Part shown: positions 18,112 through 46,934 of the stretch, one piece after another
How positions within the stretch are numbered: position 1 is the first letter of the stretch
Layout: every line of letters starts with the position of its first letter
Source of the DNA: Blasia pusilla
Lineage: Eukaryota
DNA length: 64,000 nucleotides
Direction: 5' to 3'
Assembly: GCA_050084515.1 (NCBI GenBank)
Contig: CM114271.1
Coordinates: 11,408,001-11,472,000, forward strand
Made by a program: the position numbers and the translations under genes
Notes under the pieces: generated by a model
Databases searched by the model: none
What the model was told of the DNA's origin: nothing
What the model saw: only the letters and a program-made list of their open reading frames with translations

Positions 18112-18864
18112 GGGGGGCTGGTATTCTGGCAGGAGAGAGGAAGAGAGGAGAGTCTCTCTTCAAAAAAAAGGCACAAAAGGGAAAAAAAACTGAAACTCTC
18201 TTCAAAAAATATGAAGATTATGGAAAATAAGTGAGTAATTTTTTTGGAGATTTTTTTTGAAGAGAGGAAACTTAGTGCAACCCGTCAGAATCCGACGGGT
18301 TGCAATTTTTTGGTTTTTTTTTTTTGGCTTAAGGAAAATTTTTCATTTTTTGGGGTTTTTTCAACACTTGCAACCCGTCGGAGTCCAACGGGTTGCTTTC
18401 TAGGCATCATGGCGACCTGTCAGACTCCGAAAGGTTGCTTTTTGGCCTCAAAAGCAACCCGTCGGAGTCCAACGGGTTGCAAACGTTAAAAAAACCCCAA
18501 AAAATGAAATTTTTTCCTTAACCATTTATAAAAAAACCAAAAAAAGTTGCAACTCGTCGGATTTCTGACGGGTTGAAAAGGTAAAAAAATTTAGAAAAAA
18601 AACAATTTCAAATTTTTGTTTCACCACCAAATTTTTTTGGAAAAAATTTGACTTTTCAACTTGTCAAAACTTTCCTCTCTCCAACCTGTCGGAAACTCTC
18701 TTCAACCTGTCGGAAACTCTCTTCAAACCAAAAGAGCCCTAGGGGTTGCCAATATCTTCCTCTCTCCTCTCTCCTCTCTCCTCTCTTCTCTCTTCTCTCT
18801 TCTCTCTTCTCTCTTCCTCTCTCCTCTCTTCCTCTCTTCTTCTCTTCCTCTCCTCTTACCGCTC
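18112..18864. mobile_element. Non-autonomous 753-bp derivative of the MULE family, inserted in Ty3 gag
   Basis: 11-bp TSD CTCCATCACAC (18101-18111 and 18865-18875). Has both ends of the large element and about five 27-bp palindromes. Removing it restores gag 'LITETQGVMEAQAVQLWY'. Confidence 0.88.
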
Positions 18865-20035: not shown

Positions 20036-20464
20036 TATGCTCAACTAGATCAGCACCAGCTTGCCAAGTCTTGAGGTGCGGTAAGAGGAGAGGAAGAGAG
20101 GAGAGAGGAGAGAGGAAACTACCTTCAACCGAAATAGATACTTTTTTTTAAGAGTTTCTGTTGGGTTGAAGAGAGGAAACTTTTTGTGTGAATTTTTTTG
20201 CACTTTTTTGTTTAGTTATTAAGCAGTCTCGCAGTTTTTTTTTTCTCTTCCATATTTTGGCAACCCATCTGAGTCCGACCGGTTGCAAATTGCACAAAAT
20301 ATACAAAACTAAAAAATTAGTGGAATCATAAGTGTGGAACCAATCACTTTTTCTATCCAAGATCTGGAAACAATCTACCATTTGCCTTGGGCTGAATAGA
20401 GTTCAAGCTAAAAGTGGAGGTTCTTGAAAAATGAAAGTACAATCTAAAACCTCATTTTGCATCC

Positions 20465-23400
20465 TCAAAGTGGTTTGTTTAAAATACTTCGCACTTCTTT
20501 GAGGGACAAAATTGGTTGGTGGATTCCTACTCCTACCTCCGACTCTCTTAAAAATACCAGCAACACATAGTACATGTGCTTATAAGGGAAATACCTTTTG
20601 CCACTTGTCTCTCTTTGGACAAAGTCATCACATGAACATGTGGGAAAGCAACAGATGTGCACCACATACACCCATGTGACACTTGAATTTACAGTGTTGT
20701 TCTTGACCCAATACATCCTTCCTATTCCATTGCCACTCAAGACATCTTTCGTGGCGATGATCTCCATTTTTGCCTCCCGAGCTGATGCAATTCACTTTGC
20801 TCTCTCCACCGTTGGCCTACACATTCTGTTTCTCTTCACCCCCTTCTCTTCTAGACTCAAACAAAAATAATGGATTGAGATCATCCACCTTCTCTGGTTA
20901 CATGTTGACATCAATCTTGGGTTGAATACAAATTCGAAGCTCTTTGTAATGCAAACATGCTCCAAACTTCCCCCATCTACGAGTCTGAAACCGACACTTG
21001 TAAGATTGTCCACTTCGTCTTGAGTGCAGTTCGTACCCGCGTCGATGGGCCAAATCGTGGGGATATTCCCCGGAGCTCCAATGGCAGCCGGATAAGACTT
21101 CTAGAAAGCGCAAGATTCATTTGGGCAGAAGAAGTACTTCAATTGATCCCCGGTCCTCGTGAAACGATCAAAGGTTTTGAGTCCCCAAAACCCAGGCAGT
21201 GGTCGTCCAGTCCTTGTACATTTCTTATTTAGGAAAGTATCGCATGCTCTCCTAATGCCATCAGATTCTGCCCTGCAGGTGGGTCCACGTCCTGGGTTGC
21301 TCCGAGATATATGCCACCGTTTTAGGTTGCAATCCACCTCCACTACCGGAATCCCATATTTTTGAACCACTCCAATGACAGGAAGTTGCGAACTTCCAGC
21401 AACGGAGGGCTTTTGAAATTAGACATTCACTGATTTTGGAGAAGGGTCTCCATCACGGATTTGGGACGGGTCCGGGGTCCCCGAATACCTGGGTGGCATA
21501 ATTTCCTCATCCAAACCAATCACCGGATTTGTTCCTCGATGCTGCCTCTTCACCTGCTTGAAGTCAAGATACTTATCTGGTCTCCACGAGTCTTGCTTGG
21601 ACTCCTCTACCACCATCTGTATGGGATGTCTTGAAACCCACCCATGAATATCCCCACCAATGTGTACGTCTTGCTCAAGGGGAGTTCTAGCTACGCATCC
21701 ATTGAAGGCTTCCACATAGAGTTTTTCATCACCAGATCTCACAGCCGCCCTGACATAGAGCTCGTAGATCGACGACCCCCTTCCTTTTGTTATGCCTTTT
21801 GTGAGGAAGATATGGGATGCTGCAGACTGTAGCATTGCTCTTGCGTGGTCTTGTTGGCATGCCTCCACAAGTGAAATTCGTTGGCATGCTTGTGACGACC
21901 TCTAGGAAGAATGAACACTTTTTGCTCCACTTGTGTTGGGGCAGAGGGCATTTTCATTCCCAGCAACGACGGCAATGTTAGAAGGGAACGAAAATAACTC
22001 AGGAGTCAAAGAAATAAGCTACCTGTCGGAACCAGACGGGTTGCAAGGCCAAGGAATCCCATGAACAACTCTTCGACCCGTCGGGTCCCGACGTGTTGCA
22101 ACCCTAAACCCACCTACTGCAACCCGTCGGATTCAGACGGGTTGCAAGAACCTGTGGCCACTCTGGAAGATCCAAGTGCAAGTCATCCGAAATCCATCCG
22201 GGTCGAACTATTTGCAGGCCTTGTATACATGCAACTTGCATACTTGTCTACAGGTTGCACCAAAATTCTGGATGCAACCCGTCGGTTTCCGTCGGGTTGC
22301 ACACTCGGGCAACCCTTTGCATCTGACAACTTCCTTGGTTTCTTCGGTTTGAAATCCCTATAGTTCCCATGCTTCTCAACTTGAGCTACAACTTTACAAA
22401 CAATTCTCAACGTGAGCTTGACAAGAAAAAATAGTGAACTCACATGCCGCATGAAGTTTCCCCATTGTCTCATACGTACAGTCCACCAACTCAACCAAGA
22501 GCACAACTCTTTGTACTTCCCCTCAATCGCATGCTTCCTCCACCACCCATGAAGTTCTTCTTGGCATTCCATGGCATGTTTCAAGGTTTTGCTGTTCTTG
22601 CAACGTTGGAGTAGAGTGACATGCTCTGTCCTGTTATTCTCCTTGATGCAAGATTTGGTGTACCGGGTCACAGACTGTTGCCAATGGAAAGCATCTGACC
22701 TTTCCCTCTCCGGTTGAACCTCTCCACCCCAGAACACTTCCCAGATAGCAATCCACCCAGGTTGTGCATTTTCCGCTATGAACCCATAAATTTCTGGAGG
22801 TGGCCTTTTGTTTTCCTTCACCACCTCCAATAAGGGTAACCAGCACATCTTCAAATTGCCAACGTCTTCTGCCTTTACTTCACAGACAAATATAGTTTTG
22901 AGTCCCTTCTCCACATGGTCATAAACGTGAGCACCCATTGTCAACCATCCGTTCAAAGACTCAGAGCAAATATCAAAGCTTACCCAGTGCCAGTAAAGAT
23001 CTTCCCCTTCCCTCATTCGATCTATAAGATCGAGGCCACTCGACAGACCTGTGGTTGACATTTTGAAGACATAGGCCCTGGATCCCTCGCCTCCTTGGCC
23101 CATCAACTGCCATCTTTGAATGAATGGAAATCTAGAGTTGGCCTTGATTCTGGCGATGGCATCCATTTCGGCCGTCTTTCCATCTAGAACCCGTATTTGA
23201 TGCAGCAAATTCCCGAAGCACTCAAGATCAGCGAGAAATGCGAGATTTTCCCAGAGTTGTTTCTCCTCAGCCGCCGTGATCTTGCCCTGTCTAGGGATTC
23301 CAAGCAATTGTTCACAAATTTGTGATGCTGTTGTGAGCTTGATCACTCCGGGTTTTGAACCCGGAGAGCTTCTGTAGACCTTGGCAACTTTCTTCGCCAC

Positions 23401-24450
23401 ATCCTCCTTGATGTGTCTGTGAATTGCATCGGTCACAGAATGAGAGTGGGAGCCAACATGAACTGCCAGCCTTGTGTACTCTGACGTGGAGCCCAAGTCG
23501 TGGACAATGAAAAATATGTATGGAGGACACGCTCCAACGTAGAAGGGCAATGCCTGACAATGAGGACATCGATGGCCTCCCGGCGGTATGGTGGCACCGA
23601 CTCGTATGGAGTTTTGCATTCTTGGGGGAATTGCGATGTATTGACTCGCCCGTTGCGCCTGGATACGAGCATGCTGGACTTCTACACTCCAAGGCTCCAA
23701 TGCATTGGCGGCGGAGACAATCCAAGGACCATCGGAATTGAAGCACTAGTCCGTTGAAGCCTGCACCATCGATGACAATCAAACTTTCATCCATACCCTT
23801 CAGCGCCCTCCATCTTTCTTTTGAGCAAGAGCAGCAAGTGGAGGCAACTCAAAAATGCAATTACCATCGTGACGTGGGCGGCGGCAAATGTCGACAAGAA
23901 TGTGCTTGAACATTTTCAAGGCTAGAGACGAAAGCAAACTATTGCCTGATACTCGCAAGAGGAACGAGTAGGCGGACAGAGGGCCCAGTTGGTGTCCGAC
24001 AGATCCACTGAGGTTGATAATATCCGGAATCTCTTCAGGAAGAACAACATTATTACGAGCGTGTGAAGTTGGAGTCGAAGCCGGATCTACTGAGCTGGGA
24101 GTTGCAAACGTAGAGCTCGAAGCACTAGGAAATTCTCGACCGTCTTCTTGGGAAACAGATGAATTGAGGGGCAAGCCGTAAACTCTGTATTGACCATTTG
24201 TTAGAGGTAGGAGATTCCATACTTTACGGTCTACATTCATTGGATGGACTGTCTCACCTATTATGTCCTCCGTACCGTCCATCCTAATATCCTTGGATAA
24301 AAAGATGGTTCCAATTTGGAGAAGAAATCGAACAGAGAGAAAATTTTCATCCACTGCTATGAAAGACTTAAGAGCTTGCGGTCGAACAATTTTTGATTGA
24401 GGAAGGGCCGCTAGATGACTGCCACAAGTGAGCTTCATATAATTATCCAT
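20465..24450 (-). pseudogene. MULE-type transposase (GCM/WRKY-like Zn domain, DDE core, SWIM); frameshifted; one intron ~22443-21970
   Basis: Zn region 'RRQCIGALECRSPAC...CPHCQ...C...VHVGSHSH'. Core 'WVSFDIC', 'GF(I/M)A(E/D)NAQ', and 'DAFHWQQ' (MULE C/DxxH motif). SWIM 'PTCSCDDF...PYKHMYYV'. TATA at 24502-24508. Confidence 0.82.
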
Positions 24451-24599
24451 TCCTAGAAATTTCCAACGGGAGGAGAGTGAGAATGAGAATGAGAATTTTT
24501 AATTTATAGTGAATAGGAAATCAGATTCTCTTGACATAATTTTACTGACAAGATGAAGTTTGGTAGGTGAAATTGTCTGACACAATGGATTCAATTCTG

Positions 24600-25495
24600 T
24601 TGCAACCTGTCGAAGTCAAGTGGGTTAGAGGATTTGGGAAGCAGAGACGTGGGTTGCGAAGCACACATCATTTTGTTGGAACCCGTCGGAGTCCGTTGGG
24701 TTGGAACCCCCTTCTTGCCGACCGAAGATCTTTTGAGGTGATTTTGCTAGCATCAAACACAAGATATCGCTTGTTTTTGCGGGATTGTCCAACTCAGGGT
24801 ATATTTTGTGACCCGTCGGATTGCAATGGGTTTCCTCGGAACAATACCTTGTCACATTGTTTCCCAAGGGATAACCTGTCGATAATCGACGGGTTGCCCT
24901 GGTAACTCAACTATTAACCCAAGCTAAGCGAAGCCTGCAACCTGTCGGCTTCGGACGGGTTGCATGCTTCTGCCTTACCTTGAAACGCAAACATTATCAC
25001 AGATGGCAACCCGTCCCTCTCCGACGAGTTGCTCGGATACCGCGCCTTCTTGCCCAAAGACGGCGGAGGCGCGCAACCCGTCGGCATCAGACGGGTTGCC
25101 CAATTATCTCATAGTGTAACACTTACATGAAGGAAGCGTGCAAACCGTCTGTTTCCGACGAGTTCCGCGGATGCCGCACTCTCTTGCCCAAAGACGGCGA
25201 GGCGTGCAACCCGTCGCCCTCCCACGGGTTGCACAAGGGCCTCGCCTTGTTTTGCTTACATGAAGGAAGCATGCAACCTGTCGGCCTCTGACAATTTGCG
25301 TGGGAAGCCCGCATTGTTATCCCTTGACGAGGGAAGTGTGCAACCCAACGGTCTTCGACGGGTTGCGCGGGTACCTCCCGTTCTTGTCCAAAGACTGCGG
25401 AGGAGCGCAACCTGTCGGTCTCCGACGGGTTGCCACGAGGACGGATGCCTTGAACCCTCGGGAAGCATGCAACCCGTGGAAGCCGTTGGGTTGTT
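24600..25495. repeat. Array of ~13 copies of the 27-bp palindrome GCAACCCGTCGGA-N-TCCGACGGGTTGC between the two divergent genes
   Basis: Copies at about 24936, 25007, 25073, 25139, 25205, 25272, 25340, 25407 and 25468 (period ~66 bp), plus more upstream. Confidence 0.9.
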
Positions 25496-25583
25496 GTTTT
25501 TCACGTCTAGACTTCCGTAACGGCTGGCACATCGACTTCGGAAGGACGATGCGACCCAACGGTCAGCCCAACAGCTAGAAAAG

Positions 25584-25591
25584 TATAAATA
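25584..25591 (+). promoter_or_regulatory. TATA box of the ParB-MTase-like gene
   Basis: TATAAATA upstream of the ORF, conserved in inverted copy 2 (~47184-47191). Confidence 0.55.
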
Positions 25592-25693
25592 GGGGAGAAA
25601 TCGCTCATTTCTGGTTTCTCACTTCGCGATCTCTATTGCTCTCTCGCGCAGCAGCTGACCAGATACCAAGGGGCGCTTCACACGGCGACTCAT

Positions 25694-25830
25694 CGCGAGA
25701 CGATACAAGCGAACGATTGCGAGACGATACGAGCGAACAATCGCAAGACGATTCGAGCGAACGATCGCGAGACGGTTCGAGCGAACGATCGCGAGACGGT
25801 TCGAACGAACGATCACGAGATGATTCGAGC
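25694..25830. repeat. 24-bp tandem repeat (~5.5 units, GCGAGACGGTTCGAGCGAACGATC) in the putative 5' UTR
   Basis: Directly visible; fewer units in copy 2 (~47005-47070). Confidence 0.85.
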
Positions 25831-25918
25831 TACCCATGAAGGCGACTCATCTCGACATCAGCAAGGCGACTGATCAAGCGATTCATCGTGGACATAGGTG
25901 GAGGCATTTTTGGGAAAA

Positions 25919-28900
25919 ATGACAAGGAAAAAATCTCAAGCAAACAAGTCTGGGAGCTTCACTCCCAAGTCCATGAGGACTCCTGCGTCACCATCTCCAG
26001 GGCCTCGTTCGGCCAATGAGATAAGGCAGCAAGAAATCGAGGAGCGGGAAAGGGAAGCGGAGATGCACAACCAGGAGCTTCTTGCAAAACGTGTACAGGA
26101 GGCGCTCGATAAACAGAGTGCAGAGGCTGAGGCGTCGCAGGCCTTGAAGAAAAGGATCGCCGACGAAAAGCGTTTGAACGCGTCGGTGAGGAGAGCAGAA
26201 TTGGCTAAAGAGAGGAGGGAGAAAGAAATAGCCATTGAAGAAAGCCCTGCCTGTCCAACCAAAAGTGTTGAGATGCGGGAAATGTCCCCGATGAAGTCCG
26301 GGGACACAATCAATAAAGCGGAAACGGCCGAAGTTCAAATCATGGACGATGAGGTCATGAGGGCCGCCAGCGTGGAGATGGTGGACATCGCCGAAGAAGC
26401 AGAAGAGCGGTCATCCTCGTCTCTAAGCCCGGCGGAAGAAATCAACCTCTATCGGATTGACGAGTTTCCAGTGGACTTGCCAGCTGCTCTCTCAGAGCAG
26501 TTGGCTGGTCAAGAAACCGACTCAATCTTCGAGCGGGTAAGAGAGGATCTGTGTTTTTTGAATTATGTGAAGGCCCATCTTGCAATTCATTGGCAATTCA
26601 GTGTAGCTTACTGATCTTGTCCCCATTGTGACAGGTGGTAAAGCAGATGGCACTGATGGAGGGCCACAACGCCCCAATAATTCCACTCTGCCGATTGCGG
26701 ACAATGGAGTACGTCCGTATGAAATTCAGTCTGATGAGGATATTGCGAAGCTCAAACAATCGGCGGCGACAGCATCCTACATCGACAGATTCCCTCTGTT
26801 CTATCTTCACCCTTACGATAACCATGGAACCCAAGCGCTCGTTACGGATGAGGACTTGGAATTGCTCAACACATTCTGGAGGATGAGAGATCAGGAATTC
26901 AGAAGGCAAGTAGAGGGAACGGAATTCAGTTGGATGAGAAATCTGCATTTCTTCATCTCGGATGGAAATCACAGGTTCATGGCGTGGAAAAAGTTTGCAG
27001 AGGAGCGCCCAAACTCCTTGGAGGCACATTTTTGCGTGAAGGCAGTGGTGCTTTATCCATACCCTCATCACATGGCGACGGTGGAGATGGCCATGCATGC
27101 CATGAACACATAAGTTTCTTCTTGTTGCAAACCGTCGGACTCCGACAAGTTGTTTGAGTCACCACTGTTTTTGGGATGTTTTTGGCTGAACGCAACTCGT
27201 CGGAGTCCGACGAGTTGCTCTATTGATCAATGGATTAGGATGTTTTTGGTCGAAAGCAACTCGTCGGAGTCCGACGAGTTGTTCGACTGACCATAGGACT
27301 CGACAGGCCGCATTCTTTGGATGTATTTTGAAGAAAGAAACTCGTCGGAGTCCGACGAGTTGCTCGAATCGCCGCATTTTTTGGATGTTTTTTGAAGAAA
27401 GCAACTCGTCGGACTCCGATGAGTTGTTCGACTGACCACAGGTATAGTATGTTTTTGGCCCAAAGCAACTCGTCGAAGTCCGACAAGTTGCTCGACCGGC
27501 CGCATTCTTTGGATGTATTTTGAAGAAAGCAACTCGTCGGACTCCGACGAGTTGCTCGACTCGCCGCATTTTTTGGATGTTTTTTGAAGAAAGCAACTGG
27601 TCGGACTCCGACGGGTTGCTTGACTTGAAGCTTTTTTGGAGGTTTTTTGATGTTTTTGGCCGAAAGCAACTCGTTGGAGTCCGACACGTTGCATTCAGAA
27701 GTTGGAAGCTGCATTTTTCGCGTCAAATTGCAGCTTACATTGAAATTGCGCAACCTGTCGGACTCTAACGGGTTGCTAAGTTCACTTTTGATACGGACTA
27801 TTTGACAACCCGTCGGAGTCCGACGTGTTGAAACCAGGCAATCACAAATCCGAATGTAATCCGTCGGACTCCGATGGGTTGTATAATTTAGCTCGTTGCT
27901 AGAATCCGACCTTGAGCTGTGAAGACCTGTCGAAGTCCGACGGGTTGCACGAACCCATGTACCTTACAAAATTTCTTATATTGAGTTTGGATGTGCAGGA
28001 TTGTATCGGAGGGGAATGTCACCCACCACTGGATCCAGGATTGCGATCAAGTGAAGAAAGTGCTAACAACGCACCCGGCAGAGTACAAGGGGTTCTTGGG
28101 CGACGCCCTGGTAAATGAGATGTTGGCAAAGGGTGCACAAATAAAAAACAATACTTGGGCAAATAAATTTATTTCCCAAGATGCAGCCATCACAATCCTT
28201 TGCTGGTCGAAGATACAGGCCCCCAAGAAGAGCGCTGCATTGGAGCTAGAGCGGAGGGAGAAAGTATCTGTGTCTGAGCGTGCAAAATTCATCCAAGCTG
28301 CAGTATCTGCAGCTACAAAGTACACGGCAAGCAAGATGCAGCGCTACATCGCCATTCTCAACCCCGAACTTGGTCTGGATTTTTACAAGGAGCTGAAGGC
28401 GATAATCAAGCGCTAGCGGAAAAGGGATGAAGATCTGCAAGGTCGGATTGGAGAGAAAGTGTCTCTCGATTGCGTGCATCGATTTGCCTTGTCTGGAATA
28501 AGCGAATTTAGGAGAATCCGACTGATGAAAATCAGTATCGAGGGCACAGAGGCCCAAAAGAAGGCGGCACACCATCCTCCAGGTGTCTTTGATCCAGTGA
28601 TCTCCCACTGGCTCTACAATGGTCGTTCTGGGACGCGTTGCCGCTTATCAAGAAGTCCATGCTAGACAGTCTCCAAGCGGAGCTAAAAAGAATAGAGCCC
28701 ATTCCGGAGGAAGCAAACCTGGAGAGTGCTGTAGATTTCGAACTTTGGCTCGATGACATCCGGGACAAGCCCATCAAAAACCCAGGTTTCAAGACGATGT
28801 TCAAGGATTGCATCCTCCCTCAGGCAGACCTTGATGAAGAAATCGAGGGGAAAATAGGGATTTTGCAAAGAAGAAGCGAGATCTTCAGGAGCAGGCGGCC

Positions 28901-30797
28901 GATGCAGTTCGACTAAGAGCTGCCCAACATATGGCGTTCAGGTACCTCGTCCATTATAAGAATGCAGATACCTGGGGAAAAATACCGGGAGCCTGCAAAT
29001 TGTGGGCTTCTCCGCCTGATGGAGAGACATTCTCCATGTACGACACGGAGATGGCTCAGCGCATGTCCGATTGGGAGGTGGAGAATTGCCCGATTTGGCT
29101 AGACTTCAATGACCCTGAGGACATTACCAAGAAAGATTTACGCGTGCTTTATGATGTAGTGGCCGCAGGACGGAACGACATCCCTAATTTTGTGCAGCCT
29201 GAAGACTTTTTCGAAGGAGATGCGGAAGAGCAAGCCCTCAAGATAGCGGAGTTGGCTTCCAAGGTCCACATAGCCAAAGACAAATCTACAACGGGTCTCA
29301 AAGGCAAGGCGAGGGGATCAAAGAATTCCAAGGCAGAGTCCTCCCAAAGAGAGGCTGAAGATTCAAGGCCAGAGCTGGAATCGTCCGGGCGAGCGGGGAG
29401 AGAGGGTCGGACCAGGTCCTCTGTGAAAAAAACCCCACCAGAGTCTGAGGTCATAGAGACCCCAACAAGCCGACCGTAGACTCGGGAGAAGCGGAAGCAA
29501 GAGGCGCCAGGGTTGTCCCAAGGAGAATACAGTCCATCATCCTTGGGAAGACATAGAGAAACAACAACCCGGACAAGCGTCCTCCTTCAGTTCACGAATT
29601 TACTGGATGAGCTTAAAAGTTTCAGTTCTCAAGCGTCGACACCTACCATCAACAAATTGACAACGCTAGGACGGAAGCTTCAATGAAACGGGCACACTCC
29701 TTGGACGGTCAATGGAGTGGTCGAAGAGGTGGCGGTGGATCTATTGATCGCTGATTTTCCCTCAAGGTTGCGATTGTGGGACGAGAATCCGTCGAACATG
29801 GCCCAGACTAGAATGTTCCCCTTTCTTATGACCAGATCGCGCTCCTGTTTTCCTTTGCAGACGCTTATCTGAGTACAAGGGATGCTTCTTAGTTTTTACT
29901 AGAGGGAGCGAGGATGAGCTTTTCAACCTCCAGTGCGTCAAGAGGTCGCTGAAGTGGAGGACGGCGCAATCGTAGATCATCAAGAACGAGTACCCACTCC
30001 GATCCGCGACGAGTCAAATTCGGGTAAGGCTCTATTTCTGTCTCCAGATTGTATTTCTATGATGTGTTGTTTTTGTCCGTGAGCAACCCGTCGCCTTCCA
30101 ACGGGTTGGTCATGGACAAAAACAACCAGTCGGACTCCGACAAGTTGCTCCAATGTTAGTATTATAAAGAAGTTCTCTTGAGTTAAGCGAAGTTCTTTGG
30201 TGACGTGTTGCACATTATGTCACCATACTGAGAGTAGACCAGTGGCCAAGTTGCTGACATTGTTTCCAATGTGCTTATTTACAGATGGACCACTCCTATG
30301 TTTATTGCTTCGTTCGGCCCGAGCACAACTTCCAGGTGTTTAAGATCCAGGATCATGTGGATCCATGCTCCGATGGGTATAGCTTAGATAGTTTATACAA
30401 TTCCCCCCCGGGAATTTTCATGCAAGATGGTACCCCACTACCTGGAGGAAGGGAAAAGTTGCTAGCCCTGATGCAAACGCTCATCGAGCTCTGCTCAAGG
30501 CCGGGTGACTTGGTGTTCGACTTAGTGGGCCTTTCAAGGGCGAGTATCAAAGGCGTTTGGCAGAGTGGCAAGAACATTCTCTGCCTCGAGGGAAGGCAGG
30601 AACTGTTTGACCTTTGCAAGGAGGCAAAGGCACATTACGACATGCAAGTTGAGGCGTACAACTCTCCACCGAAGTCGAGAGCTCCGGTTCCAAACCCACA
30701 ATTGGTAGTGACACCATCGTCACTTCCAACGATTCCGAAAATCGGGAGGGCAAGGCCGAAAGTAATTTTGCAAGAGCTCTCGGACGATGATGAGTGA
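25919..30797 (+). pseudogene. Transposon accessory gene: coiled coil + ParB/Srx-like domain + C-terminal beta-class amino-methyltransferase-like domain (~1200 aa). Exons ~25919-26536, 26635-27109, 27999-30023, 30285-30797
   Basis: ParB-like 'IPLCRL..EYVR(E)IQSDEDIAKLKQS...FPLFYL...FFISDGNHRFMAW' (DGNHR at 26961-26975). MTase-like motif IV 'VDLLIAD(F/L)PS' (29735-29764) and 'EKLLALMQTLIELCSRPGDLVFDLVGLS.ASI...SGKNILCLEGRQELFDLCK'. Contains stops and frameshifts; the intron 2 donor is GT>AT here but intact in copy 2. Confidence 0.75.
27125..27950. repeat. Array of ~13 copies of the 27-bp palindrome filling intron 2 of the ParB-MTase-like gene
   Basis: Variant GCAACTCGTCGGA(G/C)TCCGACGAGTTGC, mostly every ~63-66 bp. 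Confidence 0.9.
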
Positions 30798-32994
30798 GTT
30801 CAAAGAAGTCAAGGACCCAGCTTGACTACAGCGTTTGGAGTAGGGATTTATTTGATGATGAGGCAAAAGATTTCATAGAATAGATCAAAAGTACAGTTCC
30901 AAGCTTCTTTCGGATGTAATAAAGGACAATATTTTTTCGAACGATGGTGGTGTTTCTAAAAGTTTGCTGAATATCTTTTATGTCTTTTCGAATGTGATCA
31001 TCTATGTACTCCGAGGACTTCTATTTTGCAACCTGTCGGATTTCCACCGCTTGCAACTTTTCACTTTTTGACCACTGCACCTTTTTAACCACTTCCAAGC
31101 AACCTGTCGGATTCCGACAGGTTGGCTGCGTGAGTGATCGGACTCTTTCCCTGTTGATCCAACTTAAGAGGTATTCTGGCAGGCTTCTTCACTTTGGCAC
31201 CTTCCCCTAGTATCGTCAAACAAGGCGTAGGCTTCTTCTCTTCTCTCAGACGTATTGGATTCCTACTACCTGTGGGATTGCCATCATGGTATTACCAAGG
31301 ACGGAGCACATATTGATACTGGATGGGTGTCACATTGCAGAGCATACAAGATATACTGCCAAGGAAGGCGGTGGGACTCAAATCAGGTTACATGGGACCA
31401 TTATGGTGTACCTAGGGGGGCGCCAAGGCTCTCGAATTCGCCAATATTTTCGATCCCCGTCTACAATCGGCCAGAGGAGCCACTTGTATCCCAGGACATT
31501 CCTTTTGTACAAGAACCTAGGAGAGTTAGGAGTAAATTTGTAGATGACCAAGCTGAAGAAATCATAGACTAGATCAAATGTATATTTCCGAGGTTCCTTC
31601 AGAGGTAATAAAGGACGAGATTTGTTCAACCGATAATGGTGTTTGTAAAAGTTTGCTGGAAATTTCTTTTGGACTTGTGGATTGTGTTATCTTAGCTACT
31701 CATAATTACAATTTTGCAACCCGTATGATTCCGACAGGTTGCAACTTTTCGCTTTTTGCCCACTGCAACTTTTTAGCCATTTCTAGGCAAGCCATTGGCT
31801 GCTTGAGTGATCGGACTCTTTCCCTGTGAGACCAACTTCTGACACATTGTGGCGGGCTTCTTAACTTTTGGCTCGTTCCCCTACATTCGTCAAACCAGTT
31901 GTAGGCTTCTTTTCTTGTCTAAGATGTGCAGGATTCCTACTACCTATCGGATTGCCATTTCGGATTCCCAACCTGTTGGATTTTCGTGGGTGCAGGGTTG
32001 AAGGGAATCACTTCTCAAAATCTTTCCTTTCTTATGGTGAGCTTGCTTGCAATGGGTGCAAGCCATCTGATTCCGATGTGTTGCAAGAGTTGCAACCTCT
32101 AAAATTCCAATGGATTGCAAGAGTTGCAACCTGTAAAATTTCCGACGGGTTGGGAGGGGTGCAGCTTCTCGGTTTCTCAGATTTAGGATTTGAATGAAGG
32201 GACATTAGTTCCTCTTTACTCCAGACAGCTAACAATCTTTTGGTTCAATTATTGTCTCATATGTTCACATTTCACAAAGTTGGTCTTGAGCAGACACCAC
32301 TCATAACCAACAGAAAGTTGGTTATGAGGCAATTCAGGGGAGGCCATGATGCAGGGAACAATCCCTGCAAAAAGAGATGTTGGCATCGTACCGATGCGCA
32401 TTCGGGTGGTCCTCCAACAAAAATACCCATGGGCACTGCTTATTGTAGACCGAGACAGGCAATGTAAAGAAACTTAGGCCCACATGGAGAGTGATGGAAA
32501 AATGTTTGTAGTGGTCTTATGATGTCTACTTTTTTTTCACCCCCTGGAAAAAGGAGGTTTCTTTAGGCCCGAATGTGGACCACTACCTACTTTCTTCTAA
32601 AGATTTCATGAATTTGAAAGCAAACAAAAATTTGAAATATATCAAAAAGTTTTGAAGAGAGGAGGCAGATTTGGCCCTTTTTTTTTAAGAGAGACTCTCC
32701 TATCTTCCTCTCTTCCTCTCCTCTCTTACTCTCTCCTACCAGAATACCAGCCCCCCCCAAGTCCTTGCGCCCGCCACCAAGCTGGCCTGCTGGCGCTAGC
32801 TTAGGGTTTAAGGTTTAGGGCGTGTGAAGCGTTGAACTGGATCATCACCATCTTGCCAAGTCCTTGCGCCTTCAACGCCTCTCCTCCTCCACTCACACCT
32901 TCAACACCTCTCTTGCCTCGAAGCCTCGAGAATACCCATGATTCACCCGCCTCACCTCTTGCTCACTTCTTCGCTGCGCCAAACTCACATGTGA

Positions 32995-39167: not shown

Positions 39168-40188
39168 GGGGGCTAGTATTCTGGCAGGAGAGAGGAAGAG
39201 AGGAGAGGAAGAGAGGAAGAGAGGAGAGTCTCTCTTCAAAAAAAAGGGCAGAATCCGCCTCCTCTCTTCAAAAATTTTTGACATATTTGAAATTTTTGTT
39301 TGCTTTAAAATGCAAGAAATCTTTAGAAGAGAGTAGCAAGTGGACCACATTCGGCCTAAAGTAACCTCTTTTTTCTAGGGGGCAAAAAACAAGTAGACAT
39401 CATAAGACTACTACAAACATTCTTCCATCACTCTCCATGTGAGCCTAAGTTTCTTCACATTGCCTGTCTCAGTCTACAATAAGTTGTGCCCAGGGGTATT
39501 TTTAACTACTCTAACTATGGTCTCAATAGACTACGGTGCCCTTCAGGGTTTAACTTCTGGCAATATGTGGTTGACATTATGGATTGACATCTCTTCTTGC
39601 AAAAGGCATAAAATACTCCTCAATAAGGGGCAAAAGAAAGGCAAAAGGAAATGCCTTTAAATGATTCTTGACTCTTCTTGCAGAAGGCATCAATACTCAT
39701 CCATAAGGGGGTTTTCCACAACAAAACAAATTGCTCATCACTCATGGTAGCCTTAGACTTTCATTACATCATTTGATGATGTGGGCTCTTGAATGGGTGC
39801 ACAAAATATACCATGGACTGCTGTGCGTTTGAAAACTTGGTTTCACCATTCTCTCTGCCACTGAGAAATGTAAACACACAAGACGAAAATTGAACCAAAA
39901 GATTGATAGCTGTCTAGAGTAAAGAGAAACTGATCAAAAAGAAAACGTGATCAGACGAGACGACAATTGAAGCAAAAGATATTTAGTTGTTAGGAGTAAA
40001 GAGGAACTGATGCACCCATGTCCCTTTATTCAGATTCTAAATCTGAGAATCCGAGAAGCTGCACCCCTCCCAACCCGTCGGAATTCAACAGGTTGCAACT
40101 CTTGCAACCCGTCGGAATCGGATGGGTTGCACCCCTTGCAAGCAAACTCACCATAATAAAAGAGGGATTTTGAGAAGTGATTCCATTC
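39168..40188. mobile_element. MULE-family terminal fragment (GGGGGCT.GTATTCTGGCAGG end), interrupted by a second copy at 40189
   Basis: Reverse complement of ~32000-32240 and ~32440-32756 of copy 1. Confidence 0.85.
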
Positions 40189-42077
40189 GGGGGCTGGTAT
40201 TTTGGCAGGAGAGAGTAAGAGAGGAGAGGAAGAGAGGAAGAGAGGAGAGTCTCTCTTCGAAAAAAAGGGCCAAATCCGTCTCCTCTCTTCAAAACTTTAT
40301 GACATATTTGAAATTTTTGTTTGCTTTCAAATCCATGAAATCTTTAGAAGAGAGTAGGTAGTGGTCCACATTTGGCCCTAAAAAAACCTCCTTTTTCCTT
40401 GGGGCGAAAAAAAAATAGACATCATAAGGCCACTACAAACATTTTCCATCACTCTCCATGTGAGCCTAAGTTTCTTAACATCTCCTCATCTCGGTCAACA
40501 AAAAGCAGTGCCCTTGGTATTTTTGTTGGAGGACCACTCGGATGCCAACCCTAAGCATCTCCTCCAAGGCATCTACTGCCTGAAATTTCTACCTCATCTA
40601 CTTCTGAACCTGCCCTAACTAAAGCCTCTTGAGCAACATTGATGGCATAGGCTCGACCTGTCTCTTGGACATGCTTGAAGGTGAGATCTACCTCTATATT
40701 CTTCCCATGCTTGCTTCTTCTCAATCTGGTTCGAGCCCCGCCTTTAGTTCACACCTCCACTTAGCTCCACCTGCACAAATCTTCCACAAATCACTTCTTG
40801 GATCCTCTCAACTCCATAGATCTCTCCCTTGGATTCTCAAGCTTTATGGCCTTCAAATGAGGTCCTCTAGGCTTCCATGAGGAATCTTCTAGCCCACAAG
40901 AGTCCAAGCATTTGAGCTCAGCCACCATTGACCTCTTCTTAGCCCCTTATTCTTCATTTCTTGGCCCTAACAATCAGATCCACCCCCTTGGTTCAAACCC
41001 TCCTCTACAACAGCAATCAAGCACTCTATCTCCTTCATTGGATACCTCGAGACTCCTAGTGCCTACACTATCGCCCTTGTCTCCTCTAGGCTTGAGGTCA
41101 ATGGAGTGACTTGGCTGCATTATCACCTTGTACAATCTTCTTGACTTGTTCTTGACACCTATTTCTTTGGGCCTTTCTCTTGCACCACCTCCACAAGTCC
41201 AAAAACATATTCCAGAAAACTTTTACAAACACCATTATGGGTTCAAAAAATCTCGTCCTTTATTACCTCCGAAGGAACCTCGGAAATGTATATTGAACCT
41301 AGTCTATGATTTCTTCACCTCGTCATCTACAAATTTACTCCTAACTCTCCTCGATGATGATTACCAAAGGAATGTCCTGGGATTCAAGTGGCTCCTCCGG
41401 CCGGTTGTAGACGGGGATCAAAAATATTGGCGGTCGAGAGCCTTGGCCCCCTAGGTACACCATAACGGTCCCATGTAACCTGTCTCGAGTCCCACCGCCT
41501 TCCTCGGCAAAGATACCTTGTACGCTCGCAATGTGACACCCATCCAAGATCAATATCCGCTCCGCCCCGGTAATACCACTATGGCAACCGCCTGACAGTA
41601 GAAGGAATCCAACACGCCCGAGAGAAGAAAAGAAGCCTACGCCGCTTTTACGAGTTGAGGGAAGGTGCCAAGGGAAGAAGCCCGCCAGATCGCTCGATCC
41701 GAAGGGTCCGATCGGCAACTGTCGAATCGAGACAGTTGCCTGGAGGTGGTAAAAAGGGTCCGATGGTCAAAAGCGAAAAGTTGCAAGGAAGAGAAATCCG
41801 ACGGGTTGCAAGTGGTCATAAAGTGAAAATTGCAAGCGTGAGAAATCCGACGGGTTGCAAAGTAGAAGACCGTGGAGTACATAGACGATCATATTGAAAA
41901 GACAAAATGATCACCAAACATTTACAAGCACCACCATCGATCGAAAAAATCTTCGCTTTATATCATCCGAAAAAGCTCTGAATCAGACATTTGATCTATT
42001 CTATGAAATCTTTTGCCAAATTATCAAAAACTCCCTACTCCAAACGTCATTAAGCTGGGTCGTTGAGTTCTTTGAAC

Positions 42078-45000
42078 TCACTTGTCATCGTCGAGAGCTC
42101 TTGCAAAATCACTTTCGACCTTGCCCTCCCGATTTTGGGAATCGTTGGAAGTGACGATGGAGTCATTACCAAGGGTGGCTCTGGGAACCGAGCTCTCGGC
42201 CGGTGGAGAGTTGTACGCCTAACGAGCCTTTCAGATTCTCGCCTTTGCCTCCTTGCAAAGGTCAAGCAGATTCGCCTTCCTCGAGGCAAAGAATGTTCTC
42301 GCCACTCGCTAGGCGCCTCGATACTCGCCCGAAAGGCCCACTAAGTCAAACACCAAGTCACCCGGCCTTGAGCAGAGCTTGATGAGCGTTTGTATCGTGG
42401 TCGGCGACTTTTCCTTCCTCCCGAAGCTGGTCTTGTCTTGCATGTAAATTCCGGGGAATTGTACAAACTATCTAAGCTGTACCCATCTGAGCATGGATCC
42501 ACAGGATCCTGGATCTTGAACACTTAGAAATTGTGCTCGGGCCGAACGAAGCAGTACACATAGGAGTGGTTCATCTGTAAATCACCACGAAACAATGTCA
42601 GAAACTAAAGAAGTCGCCTTGAGAAGATTTTCAATAACTGACTTTGGATCAACCTGTCGGAGTCCGACGGGTTGTTTTGTCCCGGACCCACCCGTCGGAA
42701 CCCGACTGGTTGTAGTTGCTTTTGGGTTTTCCAAGTTGATTTTGGTTTTCGGATGCAACCCGTCGGAAGGCAACGGGTTGCTGGCCTAGACCAGCCCATG
42801 CTCGCCTAAGAGCAACCCGTCTGATAGCAACCCGTCGCTATTAGACAGGTTGCATCCAAAAACCAAAATCAAATGCAACCCGTCCGGTTCCGACGGGTTG
42901 CAGGTACACCGCGGTTTTCCCTCTATATGTGGGAAAGATGCAACCCGTCGGAAACCGACGGGTTGCTCTCAGCCGAGCATGGGCTGCTCTAAGCCAACAA
43001 CCCGTCGCCTTCCGACGGGTTGCTCACGGACAAAAAAAACCCAGACTGACTCTCATTCTACACATCATTATAAGATAATTGAAATTATTGTATAGGAATT
43101 GAGCCTTACCCGAATCTGACTCGTTGCGGATCGGAGTGGGTACTCGTTTTTTATGATCCATGATTGTGCCGTCCTCCACTTTAGCGACCTCTTGACGCAT
43201 TGGAGGTTGAAGAGCTCGTCCTCGCTCCCTCTAGTCAACACCAAGAAGCAAAGCACCTGTCACTCAGATAAGCGTCTGCAAAGGAGAACAAAAGTGCAAT
43301 CTGGTCATAAGTGAGCGGCAGATTCCACTAAGGTACCTCGTACGCCGGATTTTTGCCCCAAAGTCACAACCCCGAGGGCAGATCGGCGATCAAGAGATCC
43401 ACCGCAACCTCTTCCACCACTCCATTCACCGTCCAGGCAGCGGGCCCGTTTCGTTGGAGCTTCCGTCCCAGCGTTGTCAATTTTTCGATGGCAGTTGTCG
43501 ACGCTTGAGAATCGAAGTTGTTCACTCATCCAAGAAAGAGGTGAATCGAGGGAGGACGCTTGTCCGGGTCGTTGTTTGTCTATGTCTTCCCAAGGATGAT
43601 GGGCTGTATTCTCCTTGGGACAACCCGGGCACCTCTCGCTTCCGCTTCTCCCTAGTCTGGGGATGGCTTGTCGGGGTTTCTATGACCTCGGATTCTTGTG
43701 GCGTTTTCTTCGCCGAGGACCTGGTCCGACCCTCTCTCCCTGCTCGTCCGGACGATTCCGCCTCTGGCCTCTCATCTTCAGGCTCTCTTTGGGAAGTCTC
43801 GGCCTCTGAATTTTTCCCTCCCCTCGCCTTGCCTTTGAGACCATTTGTGGATTTGTCTTTGGCTGTCCGGACCTTGGAAGCCAACTCAACTGCCTCGTGG
43901 GCTGCGCTTTCAGCATCTCCTCCGAAGAAGTCTTTAGGCCGACGAAATTGGGGATGTCGTCTTGTCCCGAGGCCATCTTTGATCATGAAGGACTCGTAAG
44001 TCCTTATCCGTGATGTCTTGTGGTCGTTGAAGTCGAGCCAAATGGGGCAATTCTCCACCTCCCAATCCGACATGTGTTGACCCATCTCCACGTCGTACAT
44101 GGAGAATGTCTCGCATCCGGCGAAGCCCACAATTTCAAGGTCGCCGGTAATTTTCCCCACGCACTGCGTTCTTACATCGACGAGGTACCTAAATACCATC
44201 CGTTGGGCGCTTTTAGTCGAACATTATCGGCCGTCTACTCCTATAGATCTTGCTTCTTCTTCGCTTGATCCCGTTTGTTACCCTCTACTTCTTCGTCAAG
44301 CTCGCCGAGGGAGGACGCAAACCTTGAACATGGTCTTGAATCCTGGGTTCTTGGTTGGCTTGTCCCGGATGTCGCCGAGCCAAACCTCGTAATCTCCGAA
44401 CTTTCAAGGTTTGCTTCGGCGGAATGGGCTCTAATCTTCCGAGCCCGCTGCGAGACCATCCAAAGACGGACTTCCCGATTACCCGCAACGCGCCCCTAAC
44501 GACCATTCGCGTAGCCAATGCGAGATCATCGGATCGGACACACCGGAGGATGGTGTGCCGCCCTCTTCCGGGCCTCGAGCCCTCTAGACTGATTTTCATC
44601 AGTCGTATCCTCCTGAACTCGCTAATCCCGGATAACGCAAAACGATGCACGCGATCCAGCGACACTTTCTCCCCAATCCGACCATGCGGATCTTCATCCC
44701 TCTTCCGCTGACGCTTGATAATCGCCTTGAGCTCCTTGTAGAACTCCGGACCAAGTTTGGGGTTGAGAATGCTGATGTATCGCTGCATCTTGCTTGTCGT
44801 GTATTTCGTTGCAGCAGATACAACAGCTTGGATGAATTTGGCACGCGCGCTCAGACGCAGATACCTTCTCCCTCCGCTCCAGCTCCGGGCTGGCGCTTTT
44901 CTTGCCTGTATCTTCGACCAGCAAAGGATGGTTACGATCGCATCTTGAGAAATAAACTTGTTTGCCCAAGTTTTCTTCTTAATCTGAGCACCCTTTGCAA

Positions 45001-46934
45001 GCATCGATTGACAAGGGCACGCCCAAGAACCCTCAGACTCTCCCAAAAGGTGCGTCGTAAGCACCTTCCTCACCCCATCGCAGTCCTGGATCCAATGGTG
45101 GGTGACATTCCCCTCCGATACAATCCCGCACATCCAAACTCAACCCGTCAGGAAATTACATGGGTTCACGCAACCCGCCGGACTCGACGGGTCGTCACTT
45201 CGGGTTGGATTCTAGCAACAAGCTAAATGATGCAACCCGTCGGAGTCCGACGGGTTGCATTCAGATTTGCTAATGCCAGGTAAGCAACTCGTCGGACTCC
45301 GACGGGTTGCTGGACTGCACGCTTTTTCGGATGTTTTTTTAAGATTGCAACTCGTCGGACTCACGAAGGTCGGATCGCACGCTTTTTCGGATGTTTTTTT
45401 AAGATTGCAACTCGTCGGACTCCGACGACTTGTATGATTGAACATAGATTTAACTAGTTGTTGGCCCAAAGCAAACCATCGGAGTCCGACGGGTTGCTCG
45501 ATAGGCCGCCTTGTGAGGTTGTTTCTTTAAGAATGCAACTCGTCGGACTCCGACAAGTTGCTCGAGTGACTGCAGGTTTAGAAGGTTTTTCCCCAAAGCA
45601 ACCCGTCGGAGTCCGACGGGTTGCTTGCCTCGAAGCTATTTTTCCCCATATCAACCCGTCGGAGTCCGACGGGTTGATTTCGGCCAAAAATAGTTTCGAG
45701 GCAAGCAACCCGTCGGAGTCCGACGGGTTGCTTTGGACCAAAAACTAGTTAAATCTATGTTCCATCAAACAAGTCGTCGGAGTCCGACGAGTGTCAATCT
45801 TAAAAAAACATCCGGAAAACCGTGTTGTCTAGCAACCCGTCGGAGTCCGACGAGTTGCTTTCTGCCTAAACAAACCTAACCCATTCATCAATCGAGCAAC
45901 TCGTCGGACTCCGACGAGTTGCGAAAGTGTTAAAGATACTTACGTGTTCATGGCATGCATTGCCATCTCCACCTTCGCCATGTGATGAGGGTATGGGTGA
46001 AGGACCACTGCCTTCACGCAGAAATGTGACTCCAATGAGTTGGGGCGCTCCTCCGCAAACTTGGTCCACGCCATGAACCTGTGATTTCCATCCTAGATGA
46101 AGAAATGCGATTCCTCATCCGGCTGAATTTCTGTGCCCTCAACTTGCCCTCAAGTCCTGGTCTCGCATCCTCCGAATGTGTCAAGATTTTCCAAGTCCTC
46201 CTCAAGTAACGAGCTTGGGTTCCATGCTCGTCGTAAGGCTGAACATAGAAGGGAGGAAAAGCGTCACGTGGGATCTTTGTCGCCGCCGATTGTTTTAGCT
46301 TTGCGATGTCCTCGTCTTGATCAGATTTCGCGGACGTATTCCATTGTCCTTAATCGGTAGAGTGGAATCTCGGGCGTTGTGGCCCTCCATGAGTGCCATC
46401 TGCTTTACCACCTGTCAGAACCGGGACAAGAGGAATAAGCTACACTGAAATCCCAATGAATTGCAATTCACATAATTAAAAAAACCCAGAACCTCTCTTA
46501 CCCGCTGGAAAATGGAGTCGGTTTCTTGACCAGCTAACTTGTCTGAGACAAGGGCTGGCAAATCGACTGGGAACTCGTCGATCCAATAGAGGTCGATGTC
46601 CTCTGCCGGGCTTGGAGTCGAGAATGACCGCTCTGCGGCTTCTTCCGCCATGTCCACCATCTCCACGCTGGCGGTCCTCATGACCTCGTCGTCATCGATT
46701 TGAATTGGTGTTGATTCCACTATGTTGATTGTGTCCCCGGACTTCGTGGGGGACATTTCCCGCATCTCAACACTTGCGGTTGGACGGGCTGGGCTATCGT
46801 CAATGGCTATCGCTTTTTCCCGCCTCGCTTTAGCCAATTCTGCCCTCCTCACCGACGCGTCTAGACTCTTCTTTTCTCTCTTTTCGTCGGCGATCCTTTT
46901 CTTCAAGGCCTTTGCCGGAAATGCCTCCACCTAT
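42078..46934 (-). pseudogene. ParB/Srx + amino-MTase-like gene, copy 2 (many indels, N-terminal deletion)
   Basis: DGNHR retained (~46077-46091); 'VDLLIADLPSG' (~43370-43403); 'PGDLVFDLVGLSG' (~42330-42366). Confidence 0.75.

Follow-up and report, generated by a model that had tools for sequence, protein, structure and literature searches.

Transposons that encode their own sequence-specific accessory proteins directed at chromatin or DNA are rare; VANC of the Arabidopsis VANDAL elements is the sole case that has been worked out experimentally, and the ParB-type accessory proteins of algal transposons remain at the stage of hypothesis. Here, we describe element A, a 12.7 kb transposon copy (positions 20074..32756) in a 64,000-nucleotide stretch of DNA from the liverwort Blasia pusilla (GenBank assembly GCA_050084515.1, contig CM114271.1, positions 11,408,001 to 11,472,000; the whole stretch is referred to as the window), which carries, divergently from its transposase gene, an accessory gene with ParB/Srx-like and DNA methylase-like parts, as well as arrays of a 27 bp palindrome.

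The closest described systems are found in algae. As described by Dinatale et al. 2025 (PMC12477816), the Ectocarpus element Sola1-1_Ec32 encodes a protein of 1104 aa with ParB-like and N4/N6 DNA methyltransferase domains, which is transcribed in the direction opposite to the transposase. In Petroll et al. 2025 (bioRxiv 10.1101/2025.02.11.637652), PAG3 is presented as a protein of red-algal Plavaka elements that combines ParB with a 2-oxoglutarate (2OG) oxygenase; in Bostrychia, tandem inverted-repeat arrays lie beside PAG3, and binding and modification of the encoding element by this protein is put forward as a hypothesis there; PAG3 homologues are also mentioned in Mutator transposons of Chondrus. 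By their published description, these algal accessory proteins resemble that of element A in the coupling of an N-terminal ParB-like domain to one that modifies nucleic acids, in their location on a DNA transposon and, for PAG3, in the presence of inverted-repeat arrays. The likeness of Sola1-1_Ec32 also encompasses the orientation of the gene opposite to the transposase and the N4/N6 methyltransferase type of the second domain. The differences concern the host (a liverwort, of the land-plant lineage, versus algae for PAG3 and Sola1-1_Ec32), the carrier (an element with 10–12 bp target duplications versus Plavaka/CACTA, Zisupton and Sola1) and the modifying domain, since PAG3 contains a 2OG oxygenase and not a methylase, whereas methylase motif IV is degenerate in the family of element A. 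The sequence-only reading from which this analysis started knew of no description of the combination; this has been overtaken, as both the architecture and the idea of self-binding were published in 2025 for algal transposons. No report of a ParB-type accessory gene in a land-plant transposon was found in the literature searched, which excludes most subscription journals, and element A is apparently the first member of the ParB-accessory transposon class from the land-plant lineage.

ParB–methylase fusions occur in phages, plasmids and chlorophytes; those of a ParB–helix-turn-helix (HTH) module with a Dam-type methylase have been reported in some chlorophytes and chytrids and in phage ParB–terminase loci (Iyer et al. 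2016, PMC4738411) and, like the accessory protein, show a ParB-type N-terminus followed by an adenine-methylase-type C-terminus. However, the chlorophyte fusions are assigned there to the 'chlorophyte-type Dam' clade of group 2 (PMC4738411), whereas the relatives identified here match the beta-class family PF01555 and have a degenerate motif IV. In Arabidopsis, VANC of the VANDAL Mutator-like elements binds repeated non-coding motifs of its own family, and motif and protein co-diverge between families (PMC5735166 and PMC10398659). VANC is similar to the accessory protein as proposed here in being the accessory protein of a Mutator-like element that is directed at the non-coding repeats of that element. 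VANC is not known to contain a ParB or methylase domain, and its motifs are short direct repeats rather than 27 bp palindromes. TNPA of the CACTA element En/Spm, also a non-transposase protein, binds many subterminal repeats, some of them arranged as inverted pairs, and influences silencing as well as transposition; it differs from the accessory protein in belonging to an unrelated protein family and an unrelated transposon superfamily. The N-domain fold of bacterial ParB, Noc and KorB, which act at parS, NBS and OB sites, respectively, matches the accessory domain (Z 7.5–8.4) and, as in element A, a multi-copy palindromic site is located on the replicon that encodes the protein. Unlike bacterial ParB, the accessory domain gives no sequence-profile match and has DGNHR in place of the arginine patch, and neither an HTH nor a ParA partner was found; its candidate site is 27 bp long and resides in a eukaryotic host, as against 13–16 bp for bacterial ParB sites.

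The accessory gene (25920..30797, + strand) was modelled from splice sites read in the DNA and from its colinearity with two proteins of the liverwort Riccia sorocarpa. Its exons on the + strand include exon 1 (25920-26536), the ParB-like exon 2 (26635-27109), exon 3, which starts at 27999 after an 889 bp intron holding a palindrome array, and the last exon (~30285-30797). The gene is spliced and, lying on the + strand with the transposase on the − strand, divergent from the latter, as had been read from the sequence. An exhaustive HMMER search with the open reading frame (ORF) of exon 2 recovered 60 proteins at E<=1e-3 (best 5e-15); a narrower homologue search with the ParB-like exon, limited to longer proteins, returned none. 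Nine of the 18 relatives checked by record are hypothetical proteins of R. sorocarpa, and two full-length sequences from Riccia, P0014 (1191 aa) and P0065 (1207 aa), are colinear with the window over the ParB, middle and methylase parts. Their tblastn blocks, all on the + strand, cover 26674-26721 (PIIPLCRLRTMEYVRM), 26742-27107 (E 4e-15), 28006-28578 and 28605-28769 (E 1.6e-13), 28904-29257 (E 2.7e-7), 29486..29791 (the methylase motif IV region, weak alone with E 2.5 but in colinear order) and 30291..30611 (the motif I region, E 2.8e-7; E 1.1e-38 with a hidden Markov model (HMM) of the relatives). The family has been kept at deep divergence (~30–35 % identity), with many open-frame paralogues in Riccia, and is best explained as encoding an accessory protein of ~1,200 aa with a disordered basic/acidic N-terminus, a ParB/Srx domain, a long helical middle part and a methylase-derived C-terminus.

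The ParB/Srx-like domain is encoded at 26674..27109 (+ strand), where an HMM of the domain built on the relatives matches 26712-27110 with E 2.8e-44. In an alignment of 50 relatives, W, N and H are invariant and the D-G-N-H-R pattern is near-invariant (≥90 % for each of D, G and R), DGNHR being counted in 49 of the 60 relatives, while E.AMH.LN is conserved at the end of the ParB-like exon. Direct sequence comparisons of the window exon were of little use, as phmmer against Protein Data Bank (PDB) sequences returned chance-level matches only, a DUF1015 match (E 6.9e-4, 19.1 bits) fell below its cut-off of 25.8, and a protein Atlas search with the domain yielded ParB_N, DUF3723 and DUF6551 as leads only. 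Structure was more informative. An AlphaFold2 (AF2) model computed from the alignment of 50 relatives for P0005, a relative with 31 % identity to the window exon, had a pLDDT of 83.6. With Foldseek, the best rows for this model were sulfiredoxin, ParB and Noc at weak E-values (0.013 upward), with no match at E<=0.001. A VIA-align search of 48,161 chains, independent of Foldseek, returned only 17 at Z>=2, and the first eight of these (Z 5.0–7.5) were all of the ParB/Srx type, in the order KorB (Z 7.5, rmsd 2.7, 93 residues), PadC, sulfiredoxin, free serine kinase, pNOB8 ParB-N, Atu1540, sulfiredoxin and SbnI. In a second structure comparison, the CTP-binding N-domains of ParB, Noc and KorB reached Z 8.0–8.4 with rmsd 2.4–2.6. 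Because of the VIA-align searches and because all top rows come from one superfamily, the predicted ParB/Srx fold of the N-terminal domain is accepted, and the sequence-only reading was right to propose it.

The C-terminal part yields consistent but sub-threshold matches to beta-class N6/N4 DNA methylases. PF01555 (N6_N4_Mtase) matches three of five Riccia paralogues (E 9e-6 to 5e-5, 23.7–26.2 bits, cut-off 26.7) and is precomputed for four of 26, although it reaches only E 0.091 on the last exon of the window copy. An 18-row profile over the motif I region matched DpnA (E 0.005), CcrM (0.027) and M.RsrI (0.09), and all of the ten best Atlas matches of the C-terminus were N6_N4_Mtase. The order in the alignment is that of the beta class, with motif IV preceding the S-adenosylmethionine (SAM) motif I near the C-terminus. 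The latter (FxGxG type) is kept in the relatives as DIVIDFAGGWGAT, which aligns to DpnA DIVLDPFMGSGTT, and is degenerate in the window copy, which reads DLVFDLVGLSRAS and includes the decayed stretch LVGLSRAS. An AF2 model of the C-terminus (relative P0066, 18-row alignment) had a pLDDT of 35.8 and gives no fold support. Canonical methylases have a catalytic motif IV of the form (D/N/S)PP(Y/F/W), the DPPY type, which is absent from all relatives aligned; the Riccia paralogues have at its position the consensus LDLPSGL, with the variants DLPTG, DMPSG and DLSSR, and the window reads DLLIADFPSRL (core ADFPSRL) versus DCLFLDMPSGL in relatives. The derivation of the C-terminus from beta-class N6/N4 DNA methylases is therefore supported at the level of sequence profiles, in line with the amino-methyltransferase character first assigned to it, whereas the family-wide degeneration of motif IV, a correction to that assignment, makes canonical amino-methyl transfer by the whole family doubtful.

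In element A itself, the accessory gene has decayed. A frameshift near 26722-26742 places the ParB box and the remainder of exon 2 in different frames, with IIPLCRLRTMEYVRM in the frame of ORF 26632-26886 and DIAKLKQS...DGNHR in ORF 26607-27113; the motif string IPxxRL..VR / DIxKLKxS / DGNHR that had drawn attention to the gene is present, but spans this frameshift. The exon-2 splice donor is AT, while a second copy in the window, copy B, has GTAAGT, a TAG is found at 28414 where copy B reads Q, and other frame changes occur near 28580-28605 and near 28850. With its frameshifts, stop codon and spoiled splice donor, the accessory gene of element A is a pseudogene, and it is broken in copy B as well.

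The palindrome GCAACCCGTCGGAnTCCGACGGGTTGC has 44 matches in the window at <=3 mismatches, with none expected (maximum of 0 over 100 shuffles), distributed between element A (16), copy B (23), a short derivative (3), fragment D (1) and copy C (1). At <=7 mismatches, 88 non-overlapping sites are found (35 in A, 37 in B, four in the short derivative and 12 elsewhere), and each of five shuffles gave 0. The palindrome first noticed in the sequence thus occurs far above chance and is sharply bounded, and its arrays are real, although the count of about 40 copies given for the element is to be corrected to 35. All three placements named at that time, namely introns, intergenic spacer and subterminal DNA, were recovered in the <=7-mismatch scan. 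The sites of element A are located in the left subterminal DNA (20260), in a transposase intron (22018-22300), in the spacer of the two divergent genes (24678..25433, 11 sites with a period of ~67 bp), in the intron after the ParB-like exon (27127..27948, 13 sites with a period of 64 bp), in the last intron of the accessory gene (30083-30148) and in the right subterminal DNA (31028-32084), so that 24 of the 35 belong to the two internal arrays, away from the ends. The conserved unit is bounded to 27–29 bp, with an information content of 1–1.9 bits inside and ~0.1 bit beyond positions 0–28, and the flanks show nothing conserved in common between arrays, the periods of which are mostly 64 or 67 bp, but also 55 bp. 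The best-kept columns are the outer 10 bp half-sites GCAACCCGTC and GACGGGTTGC, and the central 7 bp are the least kept; conserved half-sites around a variable centre are the form expected of a site that would be bound by a dimer. Five tandem 24 bp units of the GCGAACGATCGCGAGACGGTTCGA type were additionally observed at 25685-25804, where the 5′ leader of the accessory gene presumably lies, and copy B has a stretch related to them.

The association between gene and repeats was also examined in relatives. A scan of metagenome contigs yielded 145 stretches encoding relatives, of which 80 were kept, and 40 loci of at least 3.5 kb were analysed. A dyad-repeat family of 4–13 copies was found in 10 of the 40 loci (shuffles, 0–2), which correspond to five of ~26 non-redundant groups when near-identical contigs are grouped. 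None of the ten families is further than ~2 kb from the ParB-like exon, the loci of 14–20 kb included, and their dyads are unlike the palindrome of the window, e.g. TGAGGTGCC..GGCACCTCA, TTCGGCGCCGAA and CTTCAACTTTCAA..TTGAAAGTTGAAG; in a looser view, L075 and L067 add 5–6 imperfect palindromes upstream of the exon. The divergent arrangement of transposase and ParB-like gene recurs in L036, L050, L058 and L063/L064. The methylase-like part was detected by HMM search in only one of the 40 loci, L056, at 3621-3803 (E 1.9e-6), ~2.6 kb downstream of the ParB-like exon and on the same strand, the order of the two being the same as in the window. Direct, non-palindromic repeat arrays occur near the ParB-like gene in L040/L042, L050/L052, L009, L058 and L061, and in L040 and L050 these are built of a 25 bp AT-rich unit, the commonest 11-mer of which is present in 17–20 copies. 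If such direct repeats are binding sites, not every lineage uses dyad sites.

The limits of element A are given by its termini, its flanking duplication and its homology to copy B. The duplication, CCAAGTCTTG on the left (20064..20073) and CCAAGTCCTTG on the right (32757..32767), is of 10–11 bp with one indel, and its separation from the termini is approximate. The right terminal repeat (32670..32756, − strand) reads GGGGGGCTGGTATTCTGG...GAGAGGAAGA... and, as GGGGGGCTGGTATTCTGG...GAGAGGAAGAGAGG, ends at 32756; the right end GGGGGCTGGTATTCTGG... was matched at 32729-32755 on the − strand, and the same terminus is found at 18113(+), 39168(+) and 40189(+). The left terminus (20074, ..GCGGTAAGAGGAGAGG..) is unlike the right one, the purine-rich inner part alone being common to both. 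The transposase gene (20465..24498, − strand) comprises several exons, of which the main one (22390-23979) was delineated by tblastn with the homologue P0001 (23979-22390, 33.7 % over 561 aa, E 1e-89). Two database homologues were found, P0001 and P0002 (39 and 37 % identity), and the Cys/His-rich stretches of the transposase are conserved with both. The transposase ORFs of the window match no Pfam family even at E up to 5; the same is true of P0001 and P0002 with a limit of E 1, and the joint profile of these two homologues has no match in the PDB. The CxC...H stretch in ORF 20465-20791 presumably resembles SWIM, and the D..D..(C/D)xxH spacing is assumed to resemble that of Mutator-like elements (MULEs). 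The flanking duplications of A, of 10 and 11 bp, fall in the Mutator range of 9–11 bp, and that of the short derivative is 12 bp; these 10–12 bp duplications point to the Mutator superfamily. Because the transposase matches no Pfam family, the label 'Mutator-like' given by the sequence-only reading follows from duplication length alone; it agrees with that length and lacks a match to a MULE or Transposase_mut profile. Element A is best explained as one decayed member of a cut-and-paste DNA transposon family that has a high copy number and target duplications of Mutator length, and we are highly confident of the anatomy of the element and its genes as described.

Further copies are present in the window. 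Copy B (40189..51845, − strand, 37 palindrome sites) is inverted and repeats the layout of A, as had been claimed; it has decayed further than A, and its transposase side is truncated. A 20818-24694 and B 51845-47978 are 88.4 % identical, the blocks of the second gene 81 % and the right ends 90.8 %. Fragment D (39168..40188, − strand) is a right-end piece of another copy that adjoins copy B: its terminus at 39168 interrupts an ORF running to 39167, and copy B begins directly after it, at 40189. Fragment D and copy B are nested or abutting copies. Copy C (53371..56174, − strand) is partial and consists of a transposase part and an expanded palindrome array (55444-56033). A 752 bp non-coding derivative (18112..18863) carries four palindromes together with a left-type and a right-type terminus and is flanked by an identical 12 bp duplication, CCTCCATCACAC; it has the appearance of a non-autonomous member that inserted recently. 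Since it keeps the termini, four palindromes and a perfect duplication, the palindromes travel with the mobilized DNA.

Genomic reads, amounting to ~1 % of one same-species run and with depth summed over both directions, covered the transposase part at ~850–1300, the accessory gene at ~200–750 and the array-bearing bins at ~120–530, and the majority of those on element A were 90–95 % alike. The depth indicates that the family is very abundant and that the accessory part is either missing or diverged in many of its members. Joints with both breakpoints in palindromes are abundant in these reads; for example, 74 reads skip 7976 bp from 22142 to 30119, 122 reads link 22274 and 30082 on opposite strands, and 462 reads return from 22308 to 22274. 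Deletion or rearranged derivatives formed at palindromes seem common in the genome. RNA coverage in three runs is low; provided that standard stranded libraries were sequenced, its first-mate bias corresponds to − strand RNA for the transposase and to + strand RNA for the 3′ portion of the accessory gene. Nearly all RNA reads were only 90–95 % alike (270 of 327, 433 of 509 and 273 of 329 in the three runs, with 0–2 per run being 99 % alike), which indicates that the signal comes from other copies, expression being seen at the level of the family. No splice joints for the transposase or the accessory gene were among the RNA joints listed for the three runs, and sequence and homology are accordingly the basis of the exon model. 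The single RNA joint, from 27283 to 27633 with 13 other letters between, was rejected as an intron and attributed to variation of the array between copies. At 27259-27737, within the intron array, RNA reads (depth 6–20) carry letters that are rare in DNA reads, such as C>T at 27260 (81 of 83 RNA reads versus 6 of 173 DNA reads), and run on into unrelated sequence; this RNA is from one other locus that includes part of the array, and not from the accessory gene.

That the accessory protein binds the palindromes of its element is the preferred reading and a real possibility, if one that falls somewhat short of probable. The protein would act as a dimer recognizing the two conserved 10 bp half-sites of the 27 bp palindrome, and the arrays of the promoter-bearing spacer, the introns and the subterminal regions would gather many molecules on the element, in a manner likened to parS sites, KorB operators or the target repeats of VANC. 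The bound protein might then control the transcription, the silencing state or the end-pairing of its own element. The dimer-like form of the site, the internal arrays, the mobility of the palindromes with the derivative and their linkage to the gene in relatives appear to speak for such binding. A more elaborate model, in which a land-plant-lineage transposon encodes a nucleotide-gated ParB clamp that would load at the palindromes, spread and bring a SAM-binding, re-tooled methylase marking or shielding 'self', with palindrome and protein co-evolved in each lineage, as the unlike dyads next to the gene in distant relatives hint, is considered rather unlikely.

Several observations weigh against binding by the accessory protein. 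As the gene of element A is a pseudogene, nothing works in this copy at present. The profile of the N-terminal domain retrieved no ParB among PDB sequences, and in Pfam searches of 50 members only sub-threshold ParB-clan hints were obtained, from DUF1015 (2 of 50) and DndB (2 of 50), both of which belong to that clan. Canonical CTP-dependent ParB clamps are characterized by an arginine patch (GERRxRA type) and an ENxxR-type helix, and site-specific contacts in bacterial ParB are made by an HTH that follows the N-domain; the motif of the family is DGNHR rather than the arginine patch, and no HTH domain was found, nine long relatives matching no Pfam families. Among relatives, no dyad family was found by the criterion used in 30 of the 40 loci, the count of 10 was compared with shuffles, and some of these loci carry direct-repeat arrays instead. 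The many read joints in palindromes mark the repeats as recombination-prone DNA as well. The arms of the 88 palindromes show no covariation, with 82.3 % paired versus 82.3 % in shuffles; this lack of compensatory change fits a protein site and equally fits plain common descent, and selection for intrastrand (hairpin) pairing was dropped on the same test, since there was no excess over shuffles. Finally, a second palindrome, AATTGGAACTTGAGTTCCAATT, of 22 bp is present in 15 copies spaced 60–197 bp apart just outside A (32994-34412). It probably belongs to another transposon, represented by ORFs 37966-39093, for which no ParB-like gene was found in the window, and since this unrelated neighbour has its own array, palindrome arrays are not peculiar to ParB-carrying elements. 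These ORFs, which had no Pfam match at E<=0.001, resemble the N-terminus of a CACTA/TNP2-type transposase.

The palindromes could alternatively be sites at which the transposase, or its zinc-finger N-terminus, recognizes and synapses the ends, in which case the internal arrays would be spill-over from unequal crossing-over and the accessory protein would act on chromatin or DNA without reading them. In plant DNA transposons such as En/Spm and Ac, it is common for binding motifs to be repeated in the subterminal DNA, and this explanation gains from the non-autonomous derivative, which keeps palindromes beside both termini, from the sites in both subterminal regions of A, from the subterminal-looking array of the unrelated neighbour and from the conserved Cys/His-rich stretches of the transposase. 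It is at odds with the concentration of 24 of the 35 sites in two arrays far from the ends, with the arrays of relatives, which hug the ParB-like exon, and with a read depth that is 2–5 times higher over the transposase than over the arrays, as many transposase-bearing copies have no arrays or diverged ones; it appears possible, but on the unlikely side. Palindromes without any protein partner, that is, self-propagating hairpin- or cruciform-prone repeats spreading by slippage and recombination beside an accessory gene that is a captured and decaying passenger, would account for the abundant joints with both breakpoints in palindromes, the variable periods (64, 67 and 55 bp), the arms without covariation, the broken state of both gene copies in the window and the degenerate motif IV. 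We consider this improbable, given that the gene family has been kept at ~30–35 % identity with N and H invariant and D, G, R and W near-invariant, that many Riccia paralogues have open frames, that the half-sites are far better conserved than the centre and flanks, and that a distinct dyad accompanies the gene in each of different lineages.

A further explanation concerns the domain rather than the site. The ParB/Srx domain might be an enzyme (nuclease, kinase or ATPase; cf. sulfiredoxin, SerK, Osa and the GmrSD type) and not a DNA clamp, for example one that processes modified DNA or the ends of DNA in the course of transposition. The structural matches do include Srx, SerK and SbnI (Z 5–6.3), and DGNHR, found in 49 of 60 relatives, is nearer to the Srx and ParB-nuclease type than to the motif of ParB itself. 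The CTP-binding N-domains of ParB, Noc and KorB nevertheless score highest (Z 7.5–8.4 versus 5–6.3), by small differences, and an enzymatic domain is judged very improbable.

The remainder of the window is eukaryotic, transposon-rich DNA. Pfam matches include an EXS-family fragment (2665-3108, + strand, E 6e-6), a Helitron_like_N fragment (9462-10103, − strand, E 1e-28), an integrase zinc-binding domain with an rve core of a long terminal repeat (LTR) retrotransposon (11889-12599, − strand, E 4e-17 and 5e-9) and a weak zf-CCHC gag zinc knuckle slightly below the Pfam cut-off (59653-60438, + strand, E 8e-4).

The locus and its relatives extend the ParB-accessory class of transposons to the land-plant lineage, where it is represented by liverwort proteins and, in the source organism, by a family of very high read depth. 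They add structural support for the ParB fold and reveal a loss of the catalytic motif in the methylase-like part that any functional model will have to explain. The divergent loci with different palindromes beside the gene provide material for a test of co-variation and for the choice of protein/site pairs. If the clamp model were true, this family would constitute a eukaryotic counterpart of parS–ParB, used for transposon self-recognition.

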